DNA from: Ophelia neglecta
Taxonomy: Eukaryota
Direction: 5' to 3'
Assembly (NCBI GenBank): GCA_965285935.1
Contig: OZ260665.1
Span: 27,528,001-27,592,000, forward strand
Length of the DNA stretch: 64,000 nt
The notes under the pieces are model-generated. The model was not told the DNA's origin, ran no database searches, and worked only from the letters and a program-made list of their open reading frames with translations. Positions 10,622 to 63,405 of this stretch are shown piece after piece (within the stretch, counting starts at the first letter, position 1; every line of letters begins with the position of its first letter). Both the position numbers and the translations under genes were made by a program.

Positions 10622-13600
10622 TCAGAGTGGTGTATCAGCCACTATCCTACCAGAGTATGTCCCTTCGGACATGCAAGTCGAGTCTATAGTTTTACTACTA
10701 CTGCTTGATGCACCAAGAGAAGCATATGGAGCCCCCGCAGAACTCCCAGAGGCTTGAGTAGTATTCAGAACACCCTGTTTACGTGCCCCACTATCCACTG
10801 ACGACTTCCTGGATGCGGCAGCACTAGGCGTGTTTGAGCGAGTAGTACAATCTGTAGAATCCCCACCCTCTGATAGTAGTATATTGTCCAGATACTGCAC
10901 TACTTGTGCTGCTCTGTATAGCGTGGAGTCTTCTGGTCCACTAGGCGGCAGCACTTGTGGTCTTGGTTCGGCAGATCCTGGCTGACGATGTGTTTCTATA
11001 GTAACTTGAACCGAGTTCATGTCCGAGTCCATAGGCAGAGCTGGTCGAGCCCTGTCGCCGGCATCGCTCATGTGTGACCTGTATGTGGGAGGACGAGACC
11101 CATCATTGCCCAAAGGAAAGGTGATATGCAGGCCCGGCCGCTGGGCGGTGCTGGCCCGGGAGCGGTAGGTAGGCGGAGGGCTGCTAGGCAGACTGACATC
11201 ATCTGCTCCTCCCTCCTAAAGCAGGGAAATTGATGGTTCAAATTAAATGGGAAAAATACAGTTAGTCTATACTTTTCATAGTGAAAACTATGAACTAATA
11301 ATTCTATTTATAATGTAGATAAATAAATATAACAAAGTAAAAACAAGGTTATCACATTTTAATGCAAAGTGTGATGTTTATTTCAATTAATTTTTGGTAA
11401 CTTATAAACAAGGTGATTGTTTAATAAAAGACAGATTAATGTAATATTGTAATTAACGCATGCACCACCTGATTGGTTGGGTTTTGCTGGAGCTGTGCTA
11501 ACATGAGCTGCTGCTGGTACTCCTGCATGGACACGTTATAGGAGGGCGGGGGCCGGCGGTGTCGAAACTCAGGATACAACACTCCTGAAAGGGAAAGAAA
11601 GGCAACTAGTACTTGTACCTCCAGGAAAACAGTGACAGGTGGCTCTTATGTGATGTGGGAACATGATAGGAGTGGTAGCCAGTTAGACATTTGGTGCTGC
11701 ACAGACAGATGGTAGTCTGTCATAGTAGAGTGGATTTATTCACTGTACACTGTAATGGTGACCACATGCGTCCAGAGGGGGGGGGGGGCAGAATGAATAC
11801 AGTTTGGAGAGATGAGCTATTGCCTATGGCCTTTGGACTTGAGGCCCCCCCCCCCCCCCTCTCTCGCCCTTTAAGTCTCTTCCCTTGGGATGAACAGATC
11901 AGCTTTATCCTCTCAAGTACTTTCCTTACCAGTTATGTATACTACTTTTAAATATAACCAGTATAAAGATTTTAATGGCACAAAAATAACTGTTTTAAAT
12001 CAGGCTGCAGAGAGAGTGTGCATAATGCATGGCTGATGCTCAGAGACCTGTCAACAGTATTGATATGTACCGGAGTACTACATCTACATCTGGAAAAAAC
12101 TTTCCAGCTTTCATACATGTGCATGTGTGTAATCTATCATCCACCACAGAAGCCTTGTGGCATAATGCTCTAGAAAGGTTAGAGAATGTATTAAAAACAA
12201 ATACTCTAGCTTAGTCAACTTGAAAAATATTGATTTTAGATTAGTGACAAGGCTTAGCTGATTTGACATTGAACTTATCACCTGTTTGTAAACTGCCACA
12301 GATATCCTACTTAAAACATGTTTATTGCAAGCATTTCAACCTTGGAAAATGTTTGTAATACAATATTCTGTCAAAAACATCTCCATGGTCACTCAGATAA
12401 GAATGTACTGGCATACCTGACATATACTGTATTGTACTGTAAACGCTGCCTATCTGTAAAGCAGACTTAGCTGGAGTGTTACATCCTCACTGGTCTTATA
12501 AATCATAATAAACTTAGTTCTCAAGTACACCATGACACCTAGATATTAGATAAGTGGTAAAGGGCATTTTACTGAAGAAACCAAAATGATCAATGCCTAT
12601 CAAAAATTTAAACTGTTCCATGACACATCCAGAAAAAGTAGGATCAGTTGTAACTTGTTCACGCACCTAGCATGAACAACTTGCATGTGAGTTACATTTT
12701 GAAAGTAAATAAGCATCCAAATGCAGCACTCAACGGAAGTCTAAATAGCATGAAACAAACGCTAATCTATGAGCCAACAAACAATACATAGTGTGGAATC
12801 AGGAGACAAATGTACAAACATTGAAATATCTCAGATCGCTTACAATCAATCTTTAGACAATTAAGCCAGTTAAGTTAATGATATTTGTCTTACAATATAA
12901 ATCCTGTGAACAAATCTGAGAGGTTAAAGTTCACTTTGAAGTAAGGAATTTAAGGAGGAGGTTTCTGTCATAGAACTTAACAACATTAACTAATCCCATC
13001 TGTCCTAAGCTCTGAGCTCCTTTTTGTCAAATCACTCTGTCAACTTCAAGTGCAATTTACAGGGAAAAGGAATATCTTATTTTACATAGTCTGGGTTCAA
13101 ATTTCCCTTTTGTACATCAATGTTGGCAGTATTGACTTTTGTGTTCAGAATAAACAGGAAAAGTATGTTTGGTGACTTTCCAGGCTATAGGTCAAAATTT
13201 ACAATGCAATGACTTGGCAAAAATCTGTCAGTATTATTTTTTTTTAATGACTACTTTTTTAAGTTTTGGTACATTTAATTGGCTGAAAATTGTTAGTAAT
13301 TGGATGTGATTTAAACCGGATACATTTTGTCATCGTAAATAATTACAAGCTACTTAAAAAAAACATCAGCACATTCATTTATCACCTTCTTGCCTTAAAG
13401 CATTCAGAATGGATTGTTTTCCAAATGCCTGACAACACCAGAACTACATCTGACTCCAGGACTGATTTAAGCAGTCGCCTTCTAGCCCCAGGCTACTAAA
13501 TAGATTCTTGGCCAGTGGGTTTCATGCTTTTTTCAGTTTAAACTACAGCAAAATACATTAGAAACTTTCTTTAAGAAAAATTGCATTATCAGGGTTTGCT

Positions 13601-16600
13601 GGGATAAATAAACACAGGCATACAAGTTCGTAGTTATTGAGTGAATGTTCTGACATTTGTAACTTCACTCAGATTGGCTAGCTGACTTTCATAAGGGCTA
13701 GTAAAAATATCAATCTATTGGCCAAGGGGCCAGTGGTCCATTTACTCCAGCCTTGGGGACTCTCCAGGGGTTGCCCAAGGAGAGAAGGGTCAACCTCAAG
13801 GGGCTCACAGTCAAATTATAATACCTGGGTCCTTTTCTACTGATAGATTACATCAGTTAAATAGGGCAGCACCACAGAGCATGATTTGACTAGTGTAGCT
13901 CAATGAAGAATATTGTGTAGGCCGTCTGTGGCTATACTACTAAAGTCTGGGTGAATTCCTTCATAGTCTGCTAACCACCAGGATAACATCATGACATTTC
14001 CCAGTACTACCACAATTACATGTTAGGCCAAAGATATTTCCATGGCAAAAAAATAAAGAAAAAAAGGAATAGTGGTTATTATTTGCTCCATGCCTAATGG
14101 CAATTAATGTAGAGTACATTTTCATGATAATATAACATGTAAAACCCTTCAATAGTGTACATTTCCGATCCATATTTATTTACAACTTTGACAATTTATC
14201 AATAATGGAAGGACTCTAATACAAAATGATTGACCTTTGTGGTAGTACTAGACAGGGTGTGGTATCAAGTAAGAGTAGCCACTCGTTATAGAAAAGTAAA
14301 GCACACACCATTTTATGTCTACCTGTGAATCATCATCATGTTATCATGAGTTTTATGGCTACCCCACGGCCCACTAGCCAATAAGGAGCCCTGCGGAACT
14401 GCAGACTATTTAAAGTGGTGAAGGTAGAAAAGATACAAGTTCCATGTAAATACCATGTCAGGCATGCTTTATAAATTTGATGTACATTTTTCCTCATCTA
14501 ACTAGCCAGGATATAATAGCTGATTAGAACATTCAAGGTTTAAGGAAAGGCTTATATATAAATAAAAAATATTAACTAAACTGTGTAGTTATGGGATTCA
14601 TACAAGGTTTCAGGACGTGTTTATAAATAAATAAAAAATAATACTTCTTCCATATAGGAGTTCATTGCCGTAGGCTAAATGTACACTCAGTATTGGGAGC
14701 ACAAAAGGATGAGGTTGTACTGAATTAATTTATCTTTTTTGGTCTACAATGCTGGCAATTTTCTTCCTGATGTTTTCAGGAAGAAGATTTGACTTGAACA
14801 AATTGATAAAAAATTGTTACTAGTATATAAAAGTTAATCAAGTGCTCGTAGCTAATTTCACCTCAAACAATTATATTTCAAAATACAGCTTAAGTAATTA
14901 GAAATTAGTGAATTAGTGACAAAGGCGAACAACTTAATATCATTTTAAAGTAGAGCTCAGTTTTGTCTGGAGACACTTCGGTGATAGCTCAACGACAACG
15001 ACAAACTAAGGCTGTTTTATGATAACATGGCAAAGACATTTGACTTCTCAGTTAGTGCACAACCCTTTGGTTTCACTGCCCCTAAATAGTAATAAATGTT
15101 TGTGGTTTTGGAGCATGAACTTTTAGCTGCCTTATAATGTCCATGTTTATGGTGTCCGTATTAACCTGCCATTGTGTCTCTATTATTTGGGGGTCTTGTG
15201 GTATCAGTGTAACTCTCCATCTGTCTGTTAACATCTGTCTAGATTGTCCACCTGCCACTTATTGTTCTTTACACGCGGTCACTCTGTCATCTAGGAAACT
15301 TTGAGAAACAATCCTTTAAAGTCAGTCTATCACTCAATATGGCTCAGTTCTGTGATTAAATCATAGTGGTTAAGTTGTAGCAGGCAAAGGAGTCCATACT
15401 ACCTAATTCTTTCTTCAAATTGCACCAAAAAGCATCTTGAGGTAATGGAGATGTGTCCCTTCCTCCCTGGCTGTCTAGCAGATAAGCCACCAGACCCACC
15501 ATGATTCTACTCTCTAGTAAAAACTGACCCCTCCCTATTGGAGATAAAGAACCCTCGATCCGCCTCCGAGCTATGTTAACCTTTGATCTGGTTTTAAGAA
15601 ATGTTAACAGTTTCATTTTCAGGGTTGCCCAGTTCTGGTCAAGGCATTTCACAAGGATTTGACACTTCAGGGGTCTCAGATGGTTAAATTGACAGGTTTG
15701 CCTTCCAGGCACATGGCAAAATGCAGAGGTCCCCCGTGAATGCAAAAACTTGGTAGGCCTGGAATTTTGCTCTATCACTTTGATCATATCAGTTTATTAT
15801 GTACATGTACATGTAGGTGTTACAATATACATTAAAAGTTAGATGTACTTAATAACTTACCATCCAAAAGATAAAATATTACACTCAGTTTCCCTGTCAA
15901 AACAATTATAAAGATAAAGTCAAGTGAGGAATTGAAGTTGTTCTGAGATATATTATGTCCTGGGGATATCTGTCTGACTTTTATCAAGTAATTCTCAGGG
16001 AAAAGCTTATAAATCTCAATTTACTCCCTAACTATATACATGTTAACAATGACATACTACAACCAGGGCTTTGACATTGTAAGGAGCCACACATCATGTT
16101 TGATCAGAGTGTCGGAATGAACTCGACACTATGAAGCCAAATTCAATTGCACGCCTGAATTAACTGATAGAATTTTTTCAAATACAATACTATGAGTTAA
16201 GAATTATGAAAGTATAGACCCCATAAACTTTGAAAGAAACTGAATGTTTATACCATGATTATTGGTATGTGGTTTGAACAGGTTTATAAAAGATATAATA
16301 AAGGACCTTAAATTTCTCCTTAAGTTCAGAAATCAAAATATGTGACTCATAAGAAGCAGCATTTCTGTTTTAGACATGTAGTTTTTGTAGGAGCTGCTAA
16401 GTATAAAAAAAACTCCAAGCTTCTGAAATTCATTTACTACATTGTCAATTCTGACAGAGAAAGCTTTCTGCATTTTTAAGAATTTCTCCATTTGAAATGC
16501 AGACAAAGAGATTGGTTAACCTTTTGTGTAACCTGAGCTGGGGCTCTACTGTTTTTTTACACAGTACCTTTGTTCATCACAACATAAAGATGCCACTTTA

Positions 16601-19600
16601 ATGGAAGAGCACACCTCCATTATCAGTCATCTTATAAACAATTATACCATACATGTTAATAATTTAAACATGAGCTGCCAATTTAGATTATTCTTGTAAG
16701 TACTTTCAATTCAATGCTATCAAAAGAATAAAAGTATTTGATCTTTAATTTATTAGACAGAATATCAAACCACATTAAACACAAATTTACCAACTATCAG
16801 ATGACTGATCAACATAGGGGGGAGGGTTACACCATATCTTATAGGGGGGTGGGGGGCTAATGCACTTGTTGCCATTATCAAACTGGTTGTGCCAATAGTT
16901 CAGCAGAACTCTGTTAAGTTTACAACTGTGTGTACATTAGGTGTTTTCATTGTTCAAATCAGGCAAAAATAAATCCGGTTAGAGAACCATTTAACAACAT
17001 AAATTATTTCCTGTTCAAATTGCACGAGACTTCTCTACAGGACCTCCTTTACACCTAAACAGCCATTTGTGTCTGATAACAAGATTAGAGCAATGTACGT
17101 GCCATAAATATTGTTGAAAAGTCAGCTAATTACCATAGGTTGCAACAATGAGTACTAGGCCTTATTTTGCCTTATCACTACAGGGAAAACCGATTTCCTT
17201 ATTAAATAAGTCAGGGGGAATAGACAAAAAATCACAGCCTCAAGTAAAGAAAGGCCTATTCTGATCCAGCTAATGCTGTTTGGGAGACTGTGCAGAGTAC
17301 TGGCAGCTTGATTATGTTGACCAAAATGTGTTACACTGCAGGAGATAACTGATGTAGTTTCTTTGGATTTTGGGTTCATTAAGCAAGAGGAGGCCTTAGA
17401 AAAAGTTGGACCAACCATTTTAATACTGGTGCCACAACTGTACGATTATTAGAGTAGCCCACTGAATGTATACAGTGTTTGCTCAGGGACACTACTTCGA
17501 AAAATGTGACAAGCACACTTAATTAACAAGGTGAGGATACAGCTAGATTAGAGTGAAGTAATTAATCAGTGTCATGATCACAGTCTATAATCAAATTAAA
17601 CTGTTGATCATATTTTGGATGCTGTCATTTATCAATGCTGCCTTAGCAAAACAAGTTATCATATCCTCATATTTTCCTGCCCTGAGAGGGTTTTTGGCAG
17701 AATAAAAAACTTCTGGAAATACGACATTATCAGGCATCCAAATAGGACAAGGCGACTACCAGAGACTGGATTCACCTTGAATACCCGATAGATTGCCCAG
17801 ATTTTCTGAACACAAAGGTTTGCCTGCTTAAGTGTGCACTTTTAGCAGTCAATGCATGTGGTAAAAAGGTTGAAAAAACAAAAAGGTAGCCATAAATGTG
17901 TTAAATAATGTGTTTGATACTTGTACAACTGCAAACAGCATATCGAAAGTGTGCTTCTAAGAATTCTAGAGGGAGAGAGAAGGGCTAAACTGATAAATCC
18001 CCCCCACCCCCACCCCCACCCCAATTATGTTCTTTAAGCTGTGAGATAGTTTTGAGGCTATTTCCAGATTATTCTTGGTGTTTCTTACCTCCATACCACG
18101 CGTTCCTGTCTCGGTGGTGTCGAGGGGTGCGATGAGACCGCAGTTCCCGATTGGAGTGATCTCCAAGATTGAACAGTAGATGGCAAGGCTCGTGTCCAGG
18201 AGGTGTGCAACGCCAGCCCACCCCCACTACTACTACCAGCATCACGCCCAAACCTAGGAGAGACCATGGGAAACATAAAACAATTGTTATCTTAGTCTTT
18301 GGCAATTGCTAATCAGCACTGGCCTGCTGAATAGAACCGTGGGAACTTGGTGAATTTAAGGGCAGCCGAGTATCATTTGGAACTGGACTGTTAACTTTTA
18401 TTTTACCCTGTACTTCCAATATTAACCCCCCCCCCTCCCTCCCCCTGCTTCCTGCTCTGAGTGAATATGTAGCTATTACACGGACATGATTCCGGCTGAA
18501 CAGATTCACTAATTCCTCCAATTGCCAAAACATAAGTGCTCCCTTCATTGATATTTAGAGCTAAATAGGGCACTGACAATACTAGAGCCACTCCGGCTGG
18601 GAGTTACTCATGTTGATATAACCTGGTTAGACTTGCAGGTCTGTGCAAGCCAATCCTATGTTTTATAAAAGTGAGCTGCTGTATTACACACTACACCTGG
18701 AAGTATCTATGTCATGAAATACCATTTCCTTAGTTCAATGGAAGTCAAATCACAATGAACTGCGAGTTAACATACAGTTAACATACATTTACACGGACAT
18801 AACTAACGTTCATCACATACATTGGTTTATTACAAGCAATAATCACCTGTATAATAGTGTGCATAATTATCACCCAATATGCTGCTGAGATTCACAAGCT
18901 GTACTCAAGGTGCAGTACATGAATAGATACATCTTAAATACATGATTATACAGGCATTCTGCAGGTGTGCCACCCTAATTAAAAACACATGTGGAACATG
19001 ACTTCTAATGGCCCATGTGATACTGCATCTTGCAGAGTGGGATAACATTACTTAAACATCTGTCTTGTCTGGGTCCACATCCAGTAACAATGTAAAACTT
19101 ACACAACTAATTCAAAAGGAAAATACCTTAGAAGCAACAAACATCTATAACTTATGGTGAATCATCATCTTGTTATGTTTAGAGGAAGGCCTAGTTGGTG
19201 TTTTCAGCTTGGTTACTAGGGACTGTTCATTATTTATCACCAGGGGAGGACCGGCAAACCAGGGGAAAGTGTCACGTCCATTTTTCACGTGAAAACGGGG
19301 AGGGTCACCGTTTTTTTTTCATTAAAGGGGAGGGCCGGAAAATTTTGTTTATATACTATAATGGTAAAAATGATCGCCCTGGTTTGATTAAAAAAATTTG
19401 GCCCAAACCGCTATGTCAAGAAATTAAAACTTATGAATTAGGTTCAGGGGTCTACACTCCCTATTGCCCGACATCCCGGAGCACCTCAAATCTGCTTGCG
19501 GGCACAAAGATTTTAGTTAATAATTTTTCGCCAGGCAACCTGCTAACATTCCCCAAATCGCCGATTGTTGGATATCTTGTATATTTTATATGTACAAATA

Positions 19601-21274
19601 TTTTTGGGACAGTAAGCCTATGGTGCGGGCAAGTAGTTTCCTGGTGCTACTTGCCCTCAGGGCAAGTGCAGAAAAAAGTTAGTGTAGACCCCTGAGGTCT
19701 GAGCCTGTTAATACTACAAAGGCTTCATATCTCTAGCCATGAAATTGAAAACACACCTAGTATCATTTTTTCCACAAAACTTTTGAATGGTTGATCCCCT
19801 GGTGATAAATAATGAACACTCCCACTCCCTTAGGACAGAGAAATAATGAACACTCCCACCCCCTTAGGACAGAGTTACACACAGTTTTAATTTATCAGGA
19901 TAGACCTTTCACATAAATAACTCATGTGATTGAAAACATATTCATGTATATATATATATTAGAAAATATACAAGATTATTATCTCCTGTCAAATGGTGTT
20001 TTTTTCTCAAGGGAAATTATTTTTTTAATATAATGCAGACTGCTGGAGCTAAGACTAGCAGACCAAATGGGTCCCTTTTAATGGGATAATCAATAAATGA
20101 AATTACCTATAAACATGAGTGATAAGGTGAGGAAGCTGCTTCCAATGGTCATGTGTAAGGCACCTAGTATGATCCCCGTGACAACACAGCAGACGCCAAG
20201 CATCGCCAAGGTGACCAGCACCCAGCGGAAAGTGGTAACCGCGGTAATACAGTCCAAACAGGTGTCCCGGGTACAGCAGCCCTTGGCGCCATCATTGAGG
20301 GTAGTGACAGGACCTGGCGCTCGCCTCCGAGAGCGGCCGCTGTGCCCTGGCTGTCGGGTGTGGACCTGACCGTTGCTGGGGCTGCGCCTGCCATTCTGCC
20401 TCGACGAGCGACTCTGGTTAGGCCGGGGCGAGGTGTACGGAGGCAGCAGATGTGAGTTCAGTATGTCAGGGAGGGCTTCGTTGGTCTCGAACCTGTTTAA
20501 TGACACTCCAGGACCAAGACCGTCTGTGTGGATTTGAGCTATGTCCTGCTGGGCTCCAGCGTTTTCCTGGCCCCGAGAGTCTCTGTGATTGGCATAGTTC
20601 CCTAGCAATTGCCTTTCGTCACTGATATTAATGGTTACACTGTTATCTGAGGCAATAGACATGGGGCGTGGGGGAGCAGGACTAGAGTCCCTGGCCTGTG
20701 AGGGGCCTGGGGCAGGGTTTCGCCCCATTGTTCGAGGGCTGCGCCCAGTTGAAGGCTGGTTGGCACTTGTTCGAGGGGCTGAGCTAGCAGCAGCCATGCT
20801 TACAGTCACTCGAGTCACTGGCTTGGAGATAGGACTGCTGCTTGGTTGTCCAGAACCCTGAGCAGTGGAAGACCCAGGGGCAGCAGAGGTGGATGGCCCT
20901 GGGTCAGTACAGATTGAAGGCCCTGGGGCACTAGTGGTGGAAGGCCCAGGGCCAGCAGTGGTGGAACCCCCAGGGCCAGTAGGAGCAGGCCTCCGGGGAG
21001 TTGTTGCTCTCTGAGACGAGTCTGACTGTACGACTGAGCCACCTGTACCATTCGACTTGAGGGCACTTAATATGTTACTGTTTATTTTCATTTTTCCTCG
21101 CTGGGCTGCATTGTGGGAGGAGTCCAGTGATCGACTTTGTCTGCCAGCCTGCTCTCTCTGTCTCTCTCTTTGACCCCTGTCTCTGGTTACTATGTCAGGC
21201 ACACTGCCAGGTGGGCCCAGGGTACGAGAACGACCCCCATTGCTCCCTCCTCCTTCCTGGGATGTAGAAGCCAT
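10622..21274 (-). CDS. Uncharacterised 680-aa two-pass membrane protein with PPxY motifs and C-terminal PDZ-binding motif
   Basis: Exons 21274-20107, 18253-18089, 11584-11469, 11215-10622 (phases 1,1,0; all GT-AG; 2043 nt, open). ATG 21274 has an in-frame upstream TAG at 21317-21319, and the ORF-track start at 21304 is a TTG. Disordered S/P/G-rich N-terminus, Cys cluster GCCTRDTCLDC, two hydrophobic helices, then LYPEFRHRRPPPSY, SPPPTY, RPPTY; ends DTPL*. Confidence 0.85.
19218..19830. mobile_element. PIF/Harbinger-like MITE carrying a nested hAT-like insertion
   Basis: Left end AGGGACTGTTCATTATTTATCACCAGGGG is inverted to CCCCTGGTGATAAATAATGAACACTCCC (19796-19823). The right end is tandemly duplicated (34 bp, 19807-19874). 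TSD is not clean. Confidence 0.65.
19445..19694. mobile_element. hAT-like MITE copy 1 (250 bp)
   Basis: TIR CAGGGGTCTACACT / AGTGTAGACCCCTG. Flanks AGGTT/AGGTC. Highly similar to the copy at 32894-33143. Confidence 0.88.
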
Positions 21275-33538: not shown

Positions 33539-34069
33539 GATCCCTGGTCAACTCGCGCAGGTGCCAACTCGCACAGCAGGCAACTGTCACGTGCTTGTTT
33601 TAATATAGTTTAGTATGTTTGAAATGTTGACAAGACATCCATAACTCCTATTATGATTTGTAAATATGAAAGAAATAAATAGAAATCATTACTCCCCCCT
33701 AAACGTAGTCATCCTTTATCCAAGTCTGCCTGTTTGACTTGTGGTATTTATTTAGTTGTAAAGGGAGTAGAAACTAACTTGTGTTCTTTTTAACGCCAGA
33801 TATATATCCACGGCAATGTAGTAAACCATCCAAACACTATAAATGTGGAAAAAACCTTGAGCGGCTTGGCACCCGCGCGAGTTGTGGCCCGCGCGAGTTG
33901 TGGCCCGCGCGAGTTGTGGCCCGCGCGAGTTGTGGCCCGCGCGAGTTGTGGCCCGCGCGAGTTGTGGCCCGCGCGAGTTGTGGCCCGCGCGAGTTGTGGC
34001 CCGCGCGAGTTGTGGCCCGCGCGAGTTGTGGCCCGCGCGAGTTGTGGCCCGCGCGAGTTGACTGGACAC
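33539..34069. mobile_element. Foldback/MULE-like element with an expanded subterminal minisatellite
   Basis: GTCAACTCGCGC at the left is inverted to GCGCGAGTTGAC at the right. Flanking 9-mers AGTACTTTT (33530-33538) and TGTACTTTT (34070-34078) match 8/9. Confidence 0.65.
33872..34060. repeat. Perfect 16-bp tandem repeat CCCGCGCGAGTTGTGG x~11.8
   Basis: Identical units seen directly. They account for the RASCGPRELWPARVVA-type spurious ORFs. Confidence 0.97.
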
Positions 34070-40989: not shown

Positions 40990-42684
40990 TCAGAGAAGGT
41001 ACTCCTGCATATTTGCAAATGCAACTGATCCAATGCTCTGATTGGACATGAGCTTTAGACACTCAGAAGTCTGGGCAATGGCAACTTCAAGCGGGGGATT
41101 CCTCTGCAACCCATAAGACTCAAGAATGGCACTGTTCAAGGCTGCACATATTGGCTCCCGTTGCAATGGATCAAGCTGAAAGCCAACTGGGCTATTCCAT
41201 GGATCAGAATATGCTAGTAGGCTGAAGGCATCACGGAGTGCTTTCTTGTTGGCCTCATTAGAACCGTATTTGTGTCTGAGTTGTTCTCCGTATGCATGAA
41301 GTTCACGGCCAAATAACAGAAGTTTTTCCACTGCTGCTTGATTTCCACCGCAGAGCAGTGTTTTGGGCTGGTCAGTCTCCATGCACATCTCTCCCATGTC
41401 TATGTCCTGGCCATTAGCTAGTGTGCCATTTGTGGTTCCATTACTAGACATTCTGCTTTCCTCACCATCAATGGCTGCCATTTCTATGTCCGAGTCCAGG
41501 TTGGTGCCCCTTGAATGAACATTGTTACCAATCCCATTCATCGCAAGATTAACATCGTTCATGTCTTCCTCGGTAAGAATATCATGAGTTGGGCGGCTGT
41601 AGTGCTGTGATGGAGGAGCCAGCCCTGAGTGTGGAACTGGGCTCATTGATGGGCTAGAACGGTTGCTGCCAACTCTTGACTTGGGGCTGCGCATTCCTTT
41701 CACTTCACCATCACACCCATTGACCATCTCAATAAATTGCCTACATTTTAGTTTAAACAGAAGATTATCATTCCTTTCTAGCAGTCCTGGATATAACCTT
41801 TGAGTTGTTTCAATTGCTTCTCCTATTCTCCCTGCCAGGATCAGCTTTTGGATCCTTTGTCGATTCTTTATGGAAGCAAGCTCTTCATTGAATGACTGCT
41901 CTGTGCTTCTGGCGAAAGACTCTGCTGTGTTGCAATAGCCGTGGTGAACAAGGTATGTGGAAACTATTTTCTGAAGAGTTGATTGCCACAATCCTTTTTT
42001 GTCCATGACTGCATAATTTTGAATTGTGCATTTCGTCTTCCTTCGCCACTCTTGCATATAATCTTCTATATCAAAAACAAACGGGCTCTGTCCGAAATTC
42101 GCCTCCACTACTTCTCCTGGAGTTTGTAGACCCACAGTTGGATACAGATTTGGTGGGAGATCATGAAAGGCAATGCCAAGGTTGACACCGTTCTTGGTGT
42201 AAAAGCAAGTGTCCTCCACAAGGTTAACACAGCATCCTATCACATCATCTGTTGAGAAGGTTGGGCCATACGGTTGGCCTGTCCCTGATGAGCAAAATGA
42301 GTGGCCGTCATCACCGTGGTAGCCATATGAATGTTTGTCCCATCCAGGTAGTCTGTTCATATTCACACCTTGTGCTGATAGGCCAATTCCCATATAACCA
42401 TCTCTTCCCTTGCTGACTATTTTCACCTCAAAATAGTATATACCACAAGAGGCTGGAATTGGGTGGGTGGCTCTCACACTAGCAGCATCTTTATGATTTT
42501 TACCTGTACCTTTGTAGTGCACACGCAAGTTATTATGCGACAGTCCCAGAAAGTTGTATTTATCTTTTGGACTCCAAGATTTTGGCAAGGGGGTCACTGA
42601 TTCATCCACAGCTGGATAAAGGTGTTTCAATCGCCAAAATGGATCCATTTGGGCAGTACTTTCAGGCGATTTACTCGCACACAT
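40990..42684 (-). CDS. RANBP9: Ran-binding protein 9/10 (RanBPM; CTLH/GID E3 ligase scaffold), 564 aa, intronless CDS
   Basis: Single ORF with SPRY ([10 protein letters not shown]...[20 protein letters not shown]...[12 protein letters not shown]), LisH ([14 protein letters not shown]), CTLH ([18 protein letters not shown]) and CRA ([17 protein letters not shown]) domains. Minus-strand AATAAA at ~40548-40553. Likely co-orthologous to RANBP9 and RANBP10. Confidence 0.96.
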
Positions 42685-43114
42685 TACTCCTTGAAACTTC
42701 TTTTCTTATACTTACAGGAAAGAGATAATAAAGCAGTATTTTTTCAGTGAAATTGCCTCTCTTATTGTCAAGTCACAACACAAAGATCTCCTCTGGATCA
42801 CAGAGCAACCGGAACCAGTTTTACGTCAGGATATGGCATGGAAAGTGTGCTAAAAATAAAATACGTTTGTGCAGATTTCGCAGACATTATTCAGTAAAAA
42901 AAAGTGATTGGTTTGATTCAATAAAATCCGACAATTAGCATACACCATAGCATACAATCAAAATTAATGACTTAACTGAAATAAAGTGGTCGAAACTTTA
43001 CGATTTGAAACTAAACGAACTCATTTCGTCTTCCGCACACAAGAAGGATTTGCACAATCGCTCAAGTCGGGTTGGACCTAACATCTTATTCACAATTTGG
43101 CTTTAATTTCTTCC
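42685..43114. promoter_or_regulatory. Bidirectional promoter RANBP9(-)/SERF(+), including SERF non-coding exon 1 ending 43114
   Basis: Divergent genes. TTACGTCA at ~42821, reverse CCAAT at ~42906, donor CC|GTAAGC at 43115. The matching acceptor is TTTGCAG at 44951-44957. Confidence 0.5.
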
Positions 43115-44977: not shown

Positions 44978-45187
44978 ATGACTCGTGGAAACCAACGTGA
45001 GCTTGCCAGAGCCAAGAATCAGAAGAAGCAGGCGGATGCTAAGAAGAAAAGTGGCTCAGATAAAACCACTCTTGATGCTAAGAAGCAAAGGGATGCTGAT
45101 ATCATGAGACAGAAGCAGGCCGCTGCTCTGCAGAAAAAAGAAGGTGGGCAGCCACAGGCTGGGGCATCTGCCTCCGGGAAGAGTTAA
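44978..45187 (+). CDS. SERF2: Small EDRK-rich factor (SERF/4F5/MOAG-4 family), 69 aa
   Basis: [18 protein letters not shown]...[12 protein letters not shown] is the 4F5-family signature. ATG lies 20 nt after the acceptor at 44957. The longer ORF from 44708 runs through intron sequence. Confidence 0.93.
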
Positions 45188-48907: not shown

Positions 48908-49289
48908 TTAAACACATTGACCTAACGTGGTTATGCTCAACATATATCCTAATAAACAGATGGGCAGTCGGTCTTCAAGTAGGGGAATTTATCTACTGAG
49001 TGTGATCACATGCCTAACTGTGCATGATGGGTAAACTAGAAATTGCCGCCACTACCACATACTACCAGATGATGCATCCTGCAGCTGGCCTCAAAGTATA
49101 ACTCAATTAGAACTTAATTGCATAAATTTGTAAACCATTGGATTTTGTTTTTTCAGGGCTATGAAAAGATGTTGAGTCTGTAGGACATTCTCATTGAAGC
49201 CAGTGACCGTGGTGCAGCGTCAAAGAAGTCTTCAGCTCTTAGCATTTAGAAATTAACTTAAACTGATTTGCTTACAAACAACTATAAAA

Positions 49290-52200
49290 ATGGGGGACGA
49301 TCTGATCCAGGCTGTGCTAGAAACAATAGACATTGCTAAGACACAGCGAATGCAATTGGCTAACAGACTGGATTCCTTAGAAGAAGCAAAGAAACAGGCA
49401 AGCCATCAGTTTTTCCATTCATATTTCATTCTTTTCACAAATTTCAAAGTATGCACCTATTTTAAAATATGTATCGCCATCCATTGTGTTGAAATTTCTG
49501 TGTGTGGATCATGCTTGTATAGTCAATATAAGTCTCTTTTTTTGCCAGTACCTTATATTTCAGTATCTTTTGCACCATTGTCTTTATACTGTTCATTTCC
49601 TCTGCACTGCTGATCTTAATGTTAATTATATATTTTTTATTCCGAGTGCCCCCCCCCCCCCCCCCCCCCCCACCCAACAAAAAATCAAGAGGAATCTCTT
49701 TCACCCATACAACACTAACTTGCTTAACCAAGTTACACACTTTGACATTGTCAGCGTAAAATTCTGGTTTTTGGTATGGAGTGATAAAGAGTTCACTGTT
49801 TTAACCATATTCTGGTATTGGCACTATGCATTCTCATTTTTATCACATTCAGTAAGTTTAGTATATGCAAGTCACATAAATCATGGTTATTAGGAAAATA
49901 ATAAACACAATTTCTCATTCAGATTGAAAGCAGTGCACAGACTTCTCGTGAAAAACTTCAGAAGCACTTTGACCACCTCAAGTCATGTATAAACAAGGCT
50001 TTGGATGATCGACTTAAAGAACTGGTTTCCCAGGTAGAGCACATACAGATATAAAGATTGCTTAACTGAATGCCAAGAAGAAAATAAAGTATTGCATGCA
50101 CATCTATGTTTGTTTATAGGATGTGATGAAAGTTTAAAAAAACTACAGGCTACATAACCCCATTTTCATGAAAGTAGACGTGTGGACCCCATTTTTCTAC
50201 AGCCAGGGGCCCTGGCTGTAGGAAAACAATTTTTTGTACAGTATATTGCCAACACCAATGGTCAAATATGAAATTGGGGTATAAAAAATACAATTAATAA
50301 TGTGAACTATTAAAGTACATATACCTTTCTGAACAAATCACAATTCAAGTGGGCATCAATGATTTTTTTATCCCTTCTATAGGTGGATGAAATAGAAAAC
50401 AGTGCCATTGAGCCCTTACAGGAATGTGAAGAAGTCATTGTCAAGGGGTCTGCTGAAGCCATGCAAGTTCTCAAAGATGGCAAGTTAACTCGAGCCTTCT
50501 TGTCCTGTTTTTCTTTAAATGGAGTATAAAGCATGTATTTTATACCATTGTCTTATTAAACATAAGGTGATAATCCTTTATTTGGTTGTTGACAATGTAT
50601 TTTAAGTCATTCAATGACAGTAATACTAAATGTTTCCTTTCTTTTTTTAGGGAAGAAAATACTGATGGGTGACCATGAAAAGTCAGAAGATATCATGAAT
50701 GCATTCAATAATAGGCCAAATGAATTAGGACTAAATAAGTAAGATCTCAATATATTCTAACGTCACAATGAAATAACTTGCACTCTACAGTGCTCTGATT
50801 GGCAGGGATATGTTCATTGCAAACATATGAAGCACCACACTGAGGTTGGAGTTACCATCACATGTAAAGTACATTGGCTGAAGACCCTGGGTATGGTCCC
50901 ATGTAAAGTACATGGACAGGAACCCTGGGTATGGCCACATGTAAAGTACTTTGACAGGTGACCCTGGGTATGGTTACATGTAAAGTACTTTGACAGGTGA
51001 CCCTGGGTATGGTCACTTGTAAAGTACTTTGACATGTGACCCTGGGTATGGTCACATGTAAAGTACTTTGACAGGTGACCCTGGGTATGGTCACACATGT
51101 AAAGTACATGGACAAGTAACCCTGGGAATTGTCACATGTAAAGTACATGGACAAGTAACCCTGGGTATTGTCACATGTAAAGTGCTTTGACAGGTAACCT
51201 GGGTTACCATCACATTAAGTAGATAGATAAGTAACCAGGGTTACTGACACATGTTAAGTAGATGGGTAAGTAGCCAGGGTTACCGTCCCATGTAAGTTAC
51301 ATGGCTAAGGTACCCCGGTTACTGTCATATATAAATTACGTGAGCAGGTAACCTGGGTTACTGTTATATGTAACTTCATAGGCAGATAACCCTGGGTACC
51401 TTCACATGAAAATTACATGTACAGGTAATTCAACCTTCAACTCTACATCTTTGAAACACTTCCTATTTAAACTGAAGATCTTTAAAAAGTGCCGGTAATA
51501 TTTTGGTATCCCTATCACTTCACAAGTATCGGTATCAGATCGGTTCAAATCAAAGAGTGTGCAGCCATACATGTAATAAAGATACATAAGCAGGTAACCA
51601 AGATTATGATGTGGTGCTTTATATGTAGAAGAGGGCTTGCAATTTCATGCCTATTGGTAACTTTCTCAGAAATAATGTGAAAGTCCTGGTCAAAAACAAT
51701 GTTTAAACCCACTTAGTTATTAGATATGGTAAATGCTTATTTATTATCAAATGTGAAATATTTATTTAAAAAGTGATCAGTCAGGTAAATTTTGTCTATT
51801 TCAGAGTACCTGAGGTGCCTAGCCTTGCAGAGGTGCCCTGCGTATACATAGATCTGCCCCGAGATACCTGCATGGCCGAGGCCCAGCTGATGGAAGCCAT
51901 CAGGGACTACGGGAGAGTTATACCCAAAGCTCCTGTCCAGATCGCTGAGGTTCAAGAACAACCGGGCAGCCTCCGCATCAAATGGTGTATAGTATGTACC
52001 ATAGTCACAGGCTCAGATCTGGAATAAATTGAATACATTAAAAATGTTTCTGTTTGATGAAGATGGAATATGTATCAAGTTCAAAATGTAGCTAAAGTTT
52101 ACGTTTAGCATGTTAATTTATAGTATTAAAGGAGGAACTTGATATTATATTTTTAACACTATTTAACTATTACTATAGGTGATTGTATGATGACTGTGAT

Positions 52201-54106
52201 TGTGATTTAGAAGCCGTTTGTTTATATCAATGATACAGGGTTTTTGGATTTCATTGTCTTTCAGATGGAAGATGAGCACTCATTGGACCTAGATGAATTC
52301 TTGCTAGAATACTCTGCTGGGTCTGTCAGATCATATGATGACATTCCAAATAACACCTTTAAAGCTGCGTACCAGGGCCCAGCCACCAGCCATGTTGTCA
52401 GGCACCTTGTTGCCGCCAAGTCCTACACGTTCAGGGTATGTGGTCGAGTGGAGGGAGCACCCACTTGGAGCCCTTGGAGTATACCCTTTACAGCTCTTAC
52501 TTCTGTCCCTCATCATCGTAAGTATTCCAGTGTCACTGGTCACTGGTCTTTGCCCAGTGATATCCTATAAAAACGACTGGTTTGGAGACAATTACCACAC
52601 CGTCTGAACTGTTAAACATAAAATAAATACATCCTAATAACTAGATCCAGTACCATAATTTTTCTATATACAAGTAAAATAATACTTGACCAAATAGAAT
52701 TTGTGCCAATAGCAATATGAGGATGAATAATTTATCATGTAAAACTATATTTCATACGAAATCTAATTTTTGTACATGCATTTTGTGTCCGGCCAACTTC
52801 ATACCCTGCAGTAAATTGACATTTGGGAACAATGAATAGGGGTATCTACCTGGTGGTACTGCAGCATACAAAAGGTGTCCTCAAATTGCAAGGGGACATA
52901 GATTTTGTATGGATAACCCGAATATCTGGATTATGGGGATCCAGATATTGGGGCCAGTACTTTACTGTCCTTTATTAATAAACTGGAGGGGCCAGAATAA
53001 GCTATTAATTTTTTGTAAATTTCAGAATGGAAAGAAGATTCAACCAAAGACTACAGTGTAGGTATAGAAAACAAGACAGCTGAAAAAATCACAGACAAAG
53101 ACTCGTTATTGTACTCCAGGACCAGCTCGTATACCTGTGGCCATACAGTAGTGTTCAAAATACATGAAACTGGAGAGATGTGCTCATCTGATGGAATAGC
53201 TCTACTCGCCAAAAATAAGGGCAATGAAAGTGACCTCTTGGGTCCCAGTTCAATCTTTGTGGCTGCTGAGGGTAAGTCTGTTGTGTATTTATAGTACTTA
53301 TATTAACAGTGAGCAATGGTGTCTGTGTAACAAACCCGCCTTTAACTGGATGTTTATTGTAAAATAGAGCCTAGTCCATTTATTACTAGTACAGATCAGT
53401 AAACAACTAAATGAATAGAGATGTTGGGGGGGGGGGGGGGGGAGGGGGGTCAAAATAGTATAGTTTTGCATTAAGGTATAGAAGTTGTAAATTAAAAGGG
53501 GATATTCCATTTTATAATCCCCTAGGGAAGAAATTGAGTAGGGGGGGGGGGGGGGGGTAGTTATTCAAATATTGAGGGGTAGGGGGGTGGAGGGGTACTA
53601 ACAGATCATTTCCACCCCCAAAAATAAATTGGCTTTAAGGAATTTTAATTTGTACACAGATACATGGAATGGGTAATTGTCATAATATACTCTGGTGGTT
53701 ACTGTCCCAAACTTGTAACAAACTGCAGCTGAGATTCTTCTGAGCCTTTGTAAGCTTTCTACAATTCCTGACAAATTTCATGAAATTGCAGTTCCTTAAG
53801 ACCATATAAACATTTTTCTCAACAGGCAGAGTTTACATGAATGGCCAAGAGAAGACTACGAGGTTACCGTCGCTATCGCGTGGCTCGGTGCTGACATTAG
53901 ATACAGAAGTCTTGCAAAAAGACAAGGTGCGAATCACTATTGACATCGACGAGCGTAATGTTATATTTGACTGGGTCCTAGACAATGAAGGTTCCGAGTC
54001 CCAGGCAGCCTTAATGGGGTTCATGAGCGAACCATCACAAAACCAAGTCTCTATGTACTTTGCAGCAAAGTTTACAAAACCCAACTGGAAAATAGGGGTT
54101 GAATGA
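49290..54106 (+). CDS. CRLF3: Cytokine receptor-like factor 3 (coiled-coil + FN3 + SPRY-like), 456 aa, 8 coding exons
   Basis: Exons 49290-49397, 49923-50033, 50383-50479, 50651-50738, 51805-51991, 52265-52517, 53026-53271, 53826-54106 (1371 nt, open). Motifs VPEVPSLAEVPC, PVQIAEVQEQPGSLRIKWC, YTFRVCGR, WSPWS, LYSRTSSYTCGHTVVF and VIFDW match CRLF3. Introns 1 and 3 use GC donors. Confidence 0.93.
50858..51410. repeat. ~39-bp minisatellite (~14 copies) in CRLF3 intron 4
   Basis: Unit GACCCTGGGTATGGTCACATGTAAAGTACTTTGACAGGT; homogeneous at 50920-51090 and more divergent to the right. Confidence 0.93.
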
Positions 54107-62100: not shown

Positions 62101-63405
62101 ATTTTTTGCTAATTGTTATAAGTGAAGCTAAGCATACACAATTAGGCTCTTTTAATTTGAATTGGGTTTATAAGCCTGAATTTTCTCAGGCACTTGTTTG
62201 CTCAATACAGAAAAGAAACTTTTTACTGCTATTTTCCCCTTAAAATATATAAAGAAAGGTTCTCAGGCACACGTCAAACCTAAGACGTAAAAATAGCTAC
62301 TGATGGCTCCCCTGCCAGGCGCCCGGTATTTCGGGGGTAGTATCAGGACCGGTCAACCCGGTGTGAGTATAATGTGACTAGGTGGGGTTCCCTGTCTGGT
62401 GTCTAAGGCGGGTACTCCAGTGAGGCAGCACTCTAAAGAGGGCATTGAGTCCACTGTCACAAGTAGGCACTGTGGCGATATGACCAATAAGTGTTGAAAT
62501 CCACGTAAAAACCCCAAACAACAACAACAACAAACAACAACTCAGGCACATGTTATCATGTTATGCACAAGTAACAAGTTAGGTTAACTTTTTTTCAAAT
62601 CTTTTTTCGGGGGCAAGTTTTTCCATGAGGCATTTTATGTAGTAAAAATGCCTAAAAATCCAATTATGGCTGCTTGGCCTTATAATAGTTCTGCTGTGGT
62701 TTTAGTGCATTTGTGCGGCTCCCTTTCCCTCATTTTTTATTTCAATTTGGCAACTCTCTACCAACATTATTTTTCTTAAAGTATTCATCCCTCACTATCA
62801 AGTGATTTGATCCTTACTTCATTTTCCTCACTGTTTAATCAATCCTAGCATTGATATTCAGTCAATTGATGCACATGTTACACTATATTTGTGAGTGTTT
62901 TAAATTTTGAACACAAAATAAATTTCTATTTTATCACTTGTGTCTTACTTTTCTACTTCACTAAGAAACCAGAGGCAGGTGCGGTGGGGATCAGGAAACT
63001 CTTTATTAAGTTGTGTATGGCCTAATCATCCTGTTTTTGCTCTGTAGAGAAGAAGTAGAAAAACAGCAAGCGAAGGAGCGGTATAGGCAATTACACATGG
63101 CAGGAAAGACGGATGAGGCAAGGGCAGACTTGGCACGTTTAGCCCTTATAAGGAAACAAAGGGAAGACGCTGCCAAAAAACGTGATGTGGAGAAACTAGG
63201 TTTGTTATTACAAAGTATTCAAGTGAATTTCTTACATACGCCCCTTAAGTTAATAATAACATTGAAGTTAAAAGTAACAGTGTGACCAGAAGATGTCATT
63301 GCCGAGTGGACAAATTGAATTGACTGTTTGTGCTTTTCAGAGAAAGAAAAGGCGGATAAGGCAGCTGAAGCCAAACTAAAAGAGAGAAGAGCGGCGAAGC
63401 AATGA
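59169..63405 (+). CDS. PDAP1: PDGFA-associated protein 1 (PP28/HASPP28), 197 aa, 6 coding exons
   Basis: Exons 59169-59184, 60247-60344, 60728-60862, 61857-61984, 63048-63199, 63341-63405 (594 nt, open). Motifs HKGGHRHFT, an acidic tract, [27 protein letters not shown] and [21 protein letters not shown] are PP28-family signatures. Confidence 0.95.
62272..62540 (+). mobile_element. 5'-truncated SINE (Meta-domain type) with (CAA)n tail, in PDAP1 intron 4
   Basis: Perfect 10-bp TSD CTCAGGCACA (62262-62271 and 62541-62550). The body GTCAAACCTAAGACGTAAAAAT...CTCCCCTGCCAGGCGC resembles the Meta SINE core. 3' end CGTAAAAACCCC(AAAC/AAC)n. No tRNA head. Confidence 0.85.

Follow-up and report, generated by a model that had tools for sequence, protein, structure and literature searches.

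Most membrane substrates of NEDD4-family HECT ligases are reached through PY adaptors, whose L/PPxY motifs bind the WW domains of the ligases as in NDFIP, PMEPA1, and Commissureless, and few of these adaptors are known in invertebrates (Ndfip, Commissureless, and arrestins). PPxY is also recognized by many class I WW proteins besides the ligases. The NDFIPs are three-helix proteins whose PY motifs lie at the N-terminal end. Drosophila Commissureless/PRRG4 and ENTREP/FAM189A2 are membrane proteins whose PY motifs sort a receptor or activate ITCH; Commissureless and PRRG4 have one helix, and ENTREP is a CD20-like bundle. For NDFIP2, binding and disinhibition of WWP2 require several PY motifs (PMC12720080). 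Herpes simplex virus pUL56, which has three PPxY motifs and no lysine, links NEDD4 ligases with a substrate (PMC7539533). TMEM127 contacts SteD through its transmembrane regions, which is a precedent for substrate choice within the bilayer (PMC7342019).

The protein encoded at a locus of Ophelia neglecta resembles NDFIP1 and NDFIP2 in being an integral membrane protein and in carrying three PY motifs along a predicted cytosolic tail, the arrangement on which binding and disinhibition of WWP2/ITCH depend (PMC12720080). Unlike NDFIP1/2, its family has two helices followed by three PY motifs, often with a further PY motif ahead of the helices, and ends in a PDZ-type ligand; there is no sequence match to the NDFIPs, the NDFIP domain gave no Pfam match in the 5, 24, or 71 members scanned, and the O. 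neglecta protein and the Owenia model show two helices, not three. Unlike Commissureless/PRRG4 and ENTREP/FAM189A2, the family showed no Pfam match to the domains of those proteins in 71 members scanned. Like TMEM127 and SUSD6, it would be a membrane adaptor; those two bind WWP2 via a PY motif but carry one each, which is not activating alone, and TMEM127 has four helices (PMC7342019, PMC12720080). The closest functional picture for multiple PY motifs combined with a lysine desert is pUL56, a ligase adaptor with a membrane anchor, three PPxY motifs, and no or few cytoplasmic lysines; pUL56 differs in being viral, in having a single tail anchor, and in contacting its substrate GOPC at the coiled coil rather than at the PDZ domain, and no sequence relation is expected (PMC7539533). 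We put at about 0.7 the probability that the O. neglecta protein is a membrane-anchored adaptor or activator of NEDD4-family HECT ligases in the manner of NDFIP or pUL56.

The window, the whole 64,000-nucleotide stretch of O. neglecta DNA analyzed, holds a minus-strand gene of four coding exons that join into an open frame of 680 amino acids:
20107..21274, minus strand: coding exon 1, residues 1-389, with the start codon, disordered N-tail, Cys cluster, first transmembrane helix (TM1), loop, and first half of the second helix (TM2)
18089..18253, minus strand: coding exon 2, residues 390-444, with the remainder of TM2, Trp403, a short amphipathic helix, and an Arg/His-rich linker
11469..11584, minus strand: coding exon 3, residues 445-483, with YPEF, PPSY, and then a predicted helix
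10622..11215, minus strand: coding exon 4, residues 484-680 and the stop codon, with two PPTY motifs, the distal tail, and the terminal DTPL

All introns have GT-AG ends, with phases 1, 1, and 0; an in-frame alternative donor at 11466 in place of 11469 would add one Val, and either donor is possible. The start and N terminus of exon 1 align with homologue P0001 from residue 1, and spliced models from Owenia and Lingula align across all three junctions. Unspliced genomic ORFs diverge from the alignment at intron 1 in 25 lophotrochozoan-type rows and, by pattern, in 7 arthropod-type rows, one of which (P0147) is not a read-through. The relatives' models and the read-through ORFs support the predicted junctions, and the gene is judged real. 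Three sequencing runs cover introns and exons alike with no splice joints, so they represent DNA and are silent on expression. When the TM exon was searched against its own genome for paralogues, only this locus scored highly, the next match having E = 0.098 and containing stops.

The joined frame has two hydrophobic stretches at about residues 351-373 and 382-402, each with a Kyte-Doolittle peak of 2.72, separated by a loop of about seven residues, which bears out the preliminary description of a spliced ORF with two helices and a very short loop.
20156..20224, minus strand: TM1, residues 351-373, with conserved Gly360, Cys363, and Gly367
18213..20131, minus strand: TM2, residues 382-403, interrupted by intron 1, with conserved Gly390, Gly392, Leu395, and Trp403
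20249..20278, minus strand: juxtamembrane Cys cluster, Cys333, Cys334, Cys339, and Cys342, candidate palmitoylation sites

The hairpin is 39% identical across clades, with invariant Gly. Juxtamembrane cysteines are often palmitoylated, and among rows long enough to score, the cluster is kept as at least three Cys in 46/46 lophotrochozoan-type and at least two in 115/115 ecdysozoan-type rows; it had been described as GCC..TC..C, in which the cluster is right and the spacing is not, three residues rather than two lying between CC and TC. There is no signal peptide, and Arg-rich flanks lie on either side of the hairpin, two features that would place both tails in the cytosol. AlphaFold2 on Owenia P0007 gave two confident helices and disordered tails. 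Foldseek listed 123 PDB matches to this model at E<=10, none of them reaching E<=0.001 and all of the generic-helix kind, and the family profile had no match at E<=10 among PDB sequences.

A homologue search returned 609 matches at E<=0.001, and the protein is thus no orphan without relatives, as it had been called. Members occur in annelids, brachiopods, nemerteans, bryozoans, molluscs, a priapulid, a nematode, tardigrades, and arthropods, the last including Drosophila erecta (GG20546) and Anopheles. Pfam scans of the window's exons and of 5, 24, and 71 members placed no member above any Pfam cut-off, no family record seen carries an informative name, and literature searches returned nothing on this family. 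By these searches, it is an unnamed, Pfam-less, and widespread protostome family, and the earlier failure to place it in a named one holds. CG30089, a tentative candidate for the Drosophila melanogaster orthologue, was dropped, as nothing seen ties it to the family.

It is possible, though doubtful, that the vertebrate TMEM252/TMEM51/TMEM139 group has its protostome branch in this family. TMEM252, TMEM51, TMEM139, TMEM174, TMEM61, and TMEM100 have two helices, a short loop, and, in some, C-tail PY motifs, and they are the nearest named clusters by language-model features. In the Atlas feature search, two members scored 0.89 and 0.87 to TMEM252 and 0.87 and 0.84 to TMEM139/TMEM51; scores to the TMEM252/TMEM51/TMEM100 group span 0.77-0.89, and all scores to named families stay below the 0.9 bar, which makes them a lead only, one that a common hairpin-plus-PY make-up could produce. 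Likewise, one of 71 members matches positions 10-138 of the 139 in the TMEM252 profile (E = 0.058) and one of 71 matches TMEM51 (E = 0.041), but the best TMEM252 score is 13.5 bits against that profile's 27-bit cut-off (PF15664), the window's exons gave no TMEM252 match, and no vertebrate or other deuterostome name is among the named matches seen. The cluster representatives are 166-260 residues long, against 680 for the O. neglecta protein. The TMEM252 profile found no match in the O. neglecta genome, where the controls were silent too. A relationship to TMEM252/TMEM51 is suggested only weakly, and of the likeness to TMEM51/171/174 once suggested, TMEM51 and TMEM174 surfaced as sub-threshold leads in the feature search and Pfam.

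The motifs first read from the sequence are all present, LPPY at residue 277, PPSY at 457, PPTY at 497 and 525, and DTPL at the end.
11538..11549, minus strand: first C-tail PY motif, PPSY, residues 457-460, with P, P, and Y at 100% in each of the two clades, counted over rows selected for having three PY motifs
11165..11176, minus strand: second C-tail PY motif, PPTY, residues 497-500, in the context S-P-P-P-x-Y-R
11081..11092, minus strand: third C-tail PY motif, PPTY, residues 525-528, conserved in family rows
20435..20473, minus strand: N-tail LPDILxxH, residues 268-275, followed by LPPY, residues 277-280, with LPDIL kept even where the PY motif is lost
11565..11576, minus strand: YPEF, residues 448-451, which fits a tyrosine sorting pattern and may have a sorting role

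Of the 187 homologues in which both helices and a long C-tail are present, 178 have at least three C-tail PPxY motifs, a count biased toward matches that keep the motifs because the search queries included the PY region, and drawn from related rows that are not independent events. By comparison, shuffles of the protein's own 270-residue C-tail gave three PPxY motifs in 1/20,000 cases, and for shuffled tails the figure was 0.016%. Cross-clade identity is 80% and 78% in the blocks around the second and third motifs, versus 5-7% in the linkers, and the exon 3 block, at 60%, is the most conserved outside the PY cores. The N-tail PY motif is present in 0/34 mollusc-type rows that have the neighbouring LPDIL, versus 58/68 ecdysozoan-type rows. 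Of the PY set proposed at the outset, the C-tail motifs are therefore a conserved family feature, and the N-tail motif is lineage-variable. The ENaC-type PPxYxxPhi extension occurs in only 11/178 rows, and the ESCRT late domain P[ST]AP in 1/50 lophotrochozoan-type and 3/129 ecdysozoan-type rows, which is below shuffles and no enrichment. Another ESCRT-type pattern, [LM]YPx[LI], is present in 10/50 lophotrochozoan-type rows (0.3 expected) and absent from the O. neglecta protein. YPEF corresponds to YxxPhi, the tyrosine sorting pattern, with Tyr448 kept in 92% and 98% and Phe451 in 94% and 92% of rows in the two clades.

A conserved lysine desert over the PY zone, missed by the earlier reading, is to judge from the alignments a new observation.
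10808..20281, minus strand: lysine-free stretch, residues 332-619 (288 residues, spliced), which takes in the two helices and the three PY motifs of the C-tail

With 288 residues, the O. neglecta protein has a lysine desert at the 150-residue threshold taken from PMC13696103, and 176/179 rows, O. neglecta included, reach such a stretch, the helices being counted where no Lys interrupts. A second lysine-free stretch, residues 152-330, spans the N-tail PY motif, around which 56 rows have 0 Lys and 283 Arg. Across the PY zone of the 178 rows with at least three PY motifs, there are 10 Lys versus 2,805 Arg in 24,241 residues, and 170/178 rows are lysine-free; in contrast, the distal C-tail has 529 Lys and 770 Arg. 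When rows were dereplicated at 60% identity, which left 25, 6 Lys were observed versus 64 expected, and the variable columns hold 1 Lys and 568 Arg. Lys is depleted 50-fold, whereas Asn and Ile, other residues with AT-rich codons, are depleted only 2-fold. In arthropod-type rows, Lys stands at 0.0% over the 100 residues nearest TM2 and exceeds 3% beyond 150. Lysines are retained right at the membrane, where most rows have 1-3 in the helix-spanning segment (Lys331 in O. neglecta), and regulated ubiquitylation of the adaptor itself is possible at these sites. Lysine deserts protect components of the ubiquitin system, and Arg-rich, Lys-poor disorder can have alternative causes such as condensate formation (10.1101/2022.12.08.519562). 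The desert provides a sharp, sequence-based argument that the protein may act next to an active ligase and yet not be one of its substrates.

This pattern also bears on the unlikely reading that the protein serves a channel or transporter as auxiliary subunit or chaperone, binding the partner through its helices, being placed by its PDZ ligand, and enabling NEDD4 ligases, through its PY motifs, to remove the complex. Precedents are barttin, PIRT, and TMEM100; the hairpin with its 39% cross-clade identity and invariant Gly would suit partner binding, and the conserved juxtamembrane Lys could accept ubiquitin. However, a plain substrate needs one PY motif and nearby lysines, whereas the family keeps three to four motifs with lysines purged around them; the weak Pfam TMEM100 matches in 5/24 and 4/71 members (best E = 0.0038) are no better than those to the unrelated hydrophobic DUF2207_C and DUF7555. 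The reading overlaps with that of an adaptor if the partner is the tagged protein.

The C terminus varies by clade.
10625..10636, minus strand: terminal DTPL, which matches the class I PDZ-ligand pattern

The sequence [ST]-x-L is a class I PDZ ligand. In the rows with at least three PY motifs, [ST]-x-hydrophobic ends 45/49 lophotrochozoan-type proteins, versus a 3.5% background in their tails, and 3/129 ecdysozoan-type proteins, of which 114/129 end in A-x-L/V/I. The class I ligand proposed in the preliminary description stands for lophotrochozoans and fails for arthropods and tardigrades, which have A-x-L/V ends. Reading the arthropod A-H-L end as a peroxisomal PTS1 was rejected because A-H-V, A-Q-V, A-E-V, and A-T-L ends exist. 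The clade-wide change would be a natural experiment on PDZ partner choice.

That the PY motifs and terminal ligand serve non-ligase WW/PDZ scaffolds (MAGI, KIBRA, Yorkie/YAP), as an angiomotin-like junctional or Hippo membrane anchor, is quite improbable, even though a WW and PDZ protein such as MAGI could bind PY motif and PDZ ligand twice. A relaxed PhiPhixYxxPsiPxY pattern (10.1101/694976), with the letters for Psi being our choice, is found in 50/129 ecdysozoan-type rows, nearly all at the third PY motif, but it is absent from the O. neglecta protein and from 49/49 lophotrochozoan-type rows, two canonical PPxY motifs lie two residues apart in 0/178 rows (minimum spacing 16, median 26), long-linker PY motifs are reported in that study as weak, non-synergistic binders, and the lysine desert is left unexplained.

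The protein shows two of the features that mark the adaptor class, namely an L/PPxY-bearing integral membrane protein, with the motif on the putative cytosolic side, and multiple PY motifs; two others, PY-dependent binding and activation of a ligase and a third protein that is ubiquitylated through the adaptor, are predicted. The O. neglecta genome has four loci with WW exons beside HECT exons. A complex prediction for exon 3 and a WW domain from its own NEDD4-like locus, made with no alignment and no folded controls, scored 0.12 against a mark of 0.34 and speaks neither for nor against binding. The NEDD4-family adaptor role first proposed thus gains from PY conservation (178/187 homologues, amid linkers of 5-7% identity) and the lysine desert, with binding itself predicted; what had been called the best candidate for a new system would rather be a new family within a well-known adaptor class.

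As the PY motifs are kept in a near-lysine-free zone, the protein likely recruits a ligase to other membrane proteins and escapes tagging itself. With both tails in the cytosol, PY motifs 25-40 residues apart would dock onto several WW domains within a single ligase, relieving its autoinhibition. Absent lysines would shield the adaptor from tagging, so that ubiquitin would end up on a neighbour or on the ligase. The conserved, Gly-rich helices may select the membrane substrate within the bilayer, and the terminal ligand may either link this complex with a PDZ scaffold or present a PDZ protein as the substrate. Moreover, YPEF and the putatively acylated cysteines could steer the protein among surface, Golgi, and endosomes. 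The likely result would be that a specific membrane protein is endocytosed and sorted to the lysosome.

With near-invariant PY motifs across protostomes, no Pfam model, and members in Drosophila and Anopheles, the family is tractable in flies. We tentatively propose, as a speculative extension, that this mostly single-copy family of the protostome ancestor could be a long-lived, ubiquitin-proof switch, in which four PY motifs flanking the hairpin would clamp and activate one NEDD4-family ligase, the Gly-rich helices would read the substrate, and the terminal ligand would deliver a PDZ scaffold whose class shifted from T-x-L to A-x-L/V towards arthropods and tardigrades. If this is true, the family would be an invertebrate NDFIP counterpart linking HECT ligases with PDZ complexes, an idea that the gene in flies makes testable.

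The two-helix protein is encoded by a minus-strand gene for which four coding exons are predicted:

21274-20107, minus strand, coding exon 1
18253-18089, minus strand, coding exon 2
11584-11469, minus strand, coding exon 3
11215-10622, minus strand, coding exon 4

Inspection of the sequence shows that all three introns have GT-AG ends and pyrimidine-rich acceptors, and joining the exons gives a frame of 680 amino acids with no internal stops. A possible alternative donor for exon 3 lies in frame at 11466, 3 bases downstream. The product carries two hydrophobic segments, at about 351-373 and 382-402, separated by a loop of about 7 residues, with cysteines before (333, 334, 339, and 342), within (362 and 363), and after (405 and 413) the helices. 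It also contains LPPY277 in the N-tail, PPSY457 (PY1), PPTY497 (PY2), and PPTY525 (PY3) in the C-tail, and a C-terminal DTPL, so that the spliced frame, short-looped hairpin, and motifs of the preliminary description were all recovered. Three PPxY motifs arose in 1 of 20,000 shuffles of this C-tail.

Spliced models from Owenia (53% identity over 364 columns) and Lingula align with the Ophelia protein across all three predicted junctions. In 25 lophotrochozoan-type rows and in 6 of the 7 arthropod-type rows picked up by pattern, unspliced genomic ORFs lose the alignment precisely where intron 1 begins, and homologue P0001 aligns from residue 1. These lines support the predicted splicing indirectly, the three read sets aligned here being DNA. 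Exon 1 contains a 24-bp coding tandem repeat (20865-20979, 4.8 copies) encoding Pro/Gly/Ser/Thr repeats, which are missing in P0001, the closest homologue.

The helix region retrieved 9 matches, the Owenia core 74, an arthropod core 260 (120 listed), and a 24-row profile 609 at E ≤ 0.001 (150 listed); the protein is therefore no orphan in the sense of lacking relatives. The family has named members in annelids, a brachiopod, nemerteans, a bryozoan, molluscs, Priapulus, the nematode Plectus, tardigrades, chelicerates, a myriapod, crustaceans, and insects (including Drosophila erecta GG20546 and Anopheles AGAP007005); no deuterostome name appeared among the named matches (150 listed of the 609). 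Their records read "uncharacterized," "hypothetical," or bear low-complexity names such as mucin-5AC. In a tree built from 38 core regions, lophotrochozoan and ecdysozoan clades separate (support 100/100), the branching is broadly species-like, and the Ophelia protein falls with Owenia and Lingula (96/80). The gene is apparently single-copy in its own genome, whereas two or more divergent copies occur in Watersipora subatra (P0264, P0274), horseshoe crabs (P0108/P0114, P0112/P0119/P0130), and several spiders.

As initially noted, the protein could be placed in no named family: Pfam scans of its exons gave no family at E ≤ 1, and no family member reached a curated cut-off. Kinship to TMEM252, TMEM51, or TMEM139, to which Atlas scores (all <0.9) and single, sub-threshold Pfam matches point, is less likely than not.

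Among 287 distinct listed matches, 195 have both helices and 187 of these a C-tail of at least 100 residues. The PY motifs proved conserved, with at least three C-tail PPxY in 178 of the 187 against 0.016% of shuffled tails, although the PY region was part of the queries, which biases matches toward homologues that keep it. Scores to the Owenia or the Strigamia member assigned 49 of the 178 rows to a lophotrochozoan type and 129 to an ecdysozoan type. Between the two types, each helix is 39% identical, the block of YPEF, PY1, and the following helix 60%, PY2 80%, PY3 78%, and the linkers 5-12%; G360, C363, G367, G390, G392, L395, and W403 are near-invariant. A conserved LPDILxxH precedes the N-tail PY, which is kept in 58 of 68 ecdysozoan-type rows bearing LPDILxxH, 0 of 34 mollusc-type rows, and 4 of 7 other lophotrochozoan rows.

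The LPDILxxH copy persists where the neighbouring PY is lost. It belongs to a hydrophobic-P-D-hydrophobic-hydrophobic motif that occurs twice in the N-tail (21193-21202, aa 25-28 region; 20450-20473, aa 268-275). Such doubling is seen in 24 of the 33 long rows of lophotrochozoan type and in 6 of 53 of ecdysozoan type, and the motif matched no known ligand class. In the distal C-tail (10871-10912, aa 585-598), 16 of 50 lophotrochozoan-type rows have a short LD-like amphipathic helix pattern. None of the 129 ecdysozoan-type rows does; 50 of them bear a strand-like motif instead.

The proposed PDZ ligand holds for one clade and not the other. Lophotrochozoan-type rows end in [ST]-x-hydrophobic in 45 of 49 cases (background 3.5%; the four exceptions include one partial and one low-quality model), whereas 114 of 129 ecdysozoan-type rows end in A-x-L/V/I. 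Since Priapulus ends in T-x-L, the sequences suggest that the class I terminus is the older form.

The tails are also strikingly poor in lysine. In the Ophelia protein, 8 lysines stand against 60 arginines, and none of the lysines lies between 151 and 331 or between 331 and 620. From TM2 to just beyond the last PY (178 rows, 24,241 residues), we counted 10 lysines and 2,805 arginines, and 170 rows are lysine-free; the distal C-tail has 529 and 770, respectively. Dereplication at 60% identity left 6 lysines where 64 were expected (25 rows, with the Ophelia protein in the pool). The depletion persists in variable columns (1 Lys, 568 Arg) and around the N-tail PY (0 Lys, 283 Arg; 56 rows), far exceeds the 2-fold fall of Asn and Ile, and weakens with distance from the membrane; most rows keep one to three lysines directly beside the helices. 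Arginine-retaining lysine deserts have been linked to ubiquitin-system components (10.1101/2022.12.08.519562, PMC13696103). The NEDD4 adaptor pUL56 of HSV has three PPxY motifs and zero lysines (PMC7539533).

No signal peptide was found in the product, and both flanks of the hairpin are rich in Arg. AlphaFold2 on the Owenia member (24-row alignment) gave two confident helices and a helix after PY1, the rest being disordered (mean pLDDT 54). From these features, both tails are probably cytosolic. The genome offers four loci in which WW exons adjoin HECT exons. For NDFIP2 to bind WWP2 and relieve its inhibition, several PY motifs are required (PMC12720080), an arrangement that the multiple C-tail PPxY of this family resemble. 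TMEM127 contacts its partner through transmembrane regions (PMC7342019). With a probability of about 0.7, we read the protein as an adaptor or activator that would anchor a NEDD4-type ligase at the membrane, escape ubiquitin tagging itself by being lysine-poor, and hand ubiquitin to a membrane protein that its helices pick or to a PDZ complex bound at its C-terminus.

That the protein serves a channel or transporter as an auxiliary subunit and is itself removed by NEDD4 is unlikely; the hairpin and juxtamembrane lysines are consistent with it, but several PY motifs within a lysine desert fit it poorly. Less probable still is an anchor for MAGI, KIBRA, or Yorkie, with which PY motifs plus a PDZ ligand would agree: the relaxed tandem pattern of 10.1101/694976 is matched by 50 of 129 ecdysozoan-type rows but occurs neither in the Ophelia protein nor in any of the 49 lophotrochozoan-type rows, and a pair of canonical PPxY spaced two residues apart is absent from every row.

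Intron 1 also holds nested miniature inverted-repeat elements (19219-19823), and further features lie elsewhere in the window:

19219-19247 / 19795-19823, outer element, 29-nt arms, 97%
19444-19465 / 19674-19695, inner element, 22-nt arms
40990-42705, minus strand, RanBP9/10-like gene, 571-aa frame with SPRY, LisH, and CTLH, intronless here
44999-45187, plus strand, SERF-like small protein gene
49257-54106, plus strand, multi-exon gene with an fn3 domain
63010-63285, plus strand, PP28/PDAP1 exon
664-912, tandem array of 27 bp units
33872-34060, tandem array of 16 bp units, 11.8 copies, 100% identical
50851-51428, tandem array of 39 bp units

Summed contig depth at the inner element is 40,000-97,000 versus about 10-30 elsewhere, so this element is very high-copy. 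The RanBP9/10-like gene is possibly a retrocopy or a case of intron loss, and the fn3 gene is presumably CRLF3-like.

Literature searches, including ones by accession and gene id but covering few subscription papers, found nothing on the family, although interaction tables in supplements may still list it. It has no Pfam model, and none of the records examined names it informatively. The putative adaptor is not the new kind of system first suggested, because PY-motif membrane adaptors are already a known class. The family stands apart in carrying PY motifs on each tail of a two-helix protein, in the lysine desert that surrounds both, and in a PDZ-type end that switches between clades.
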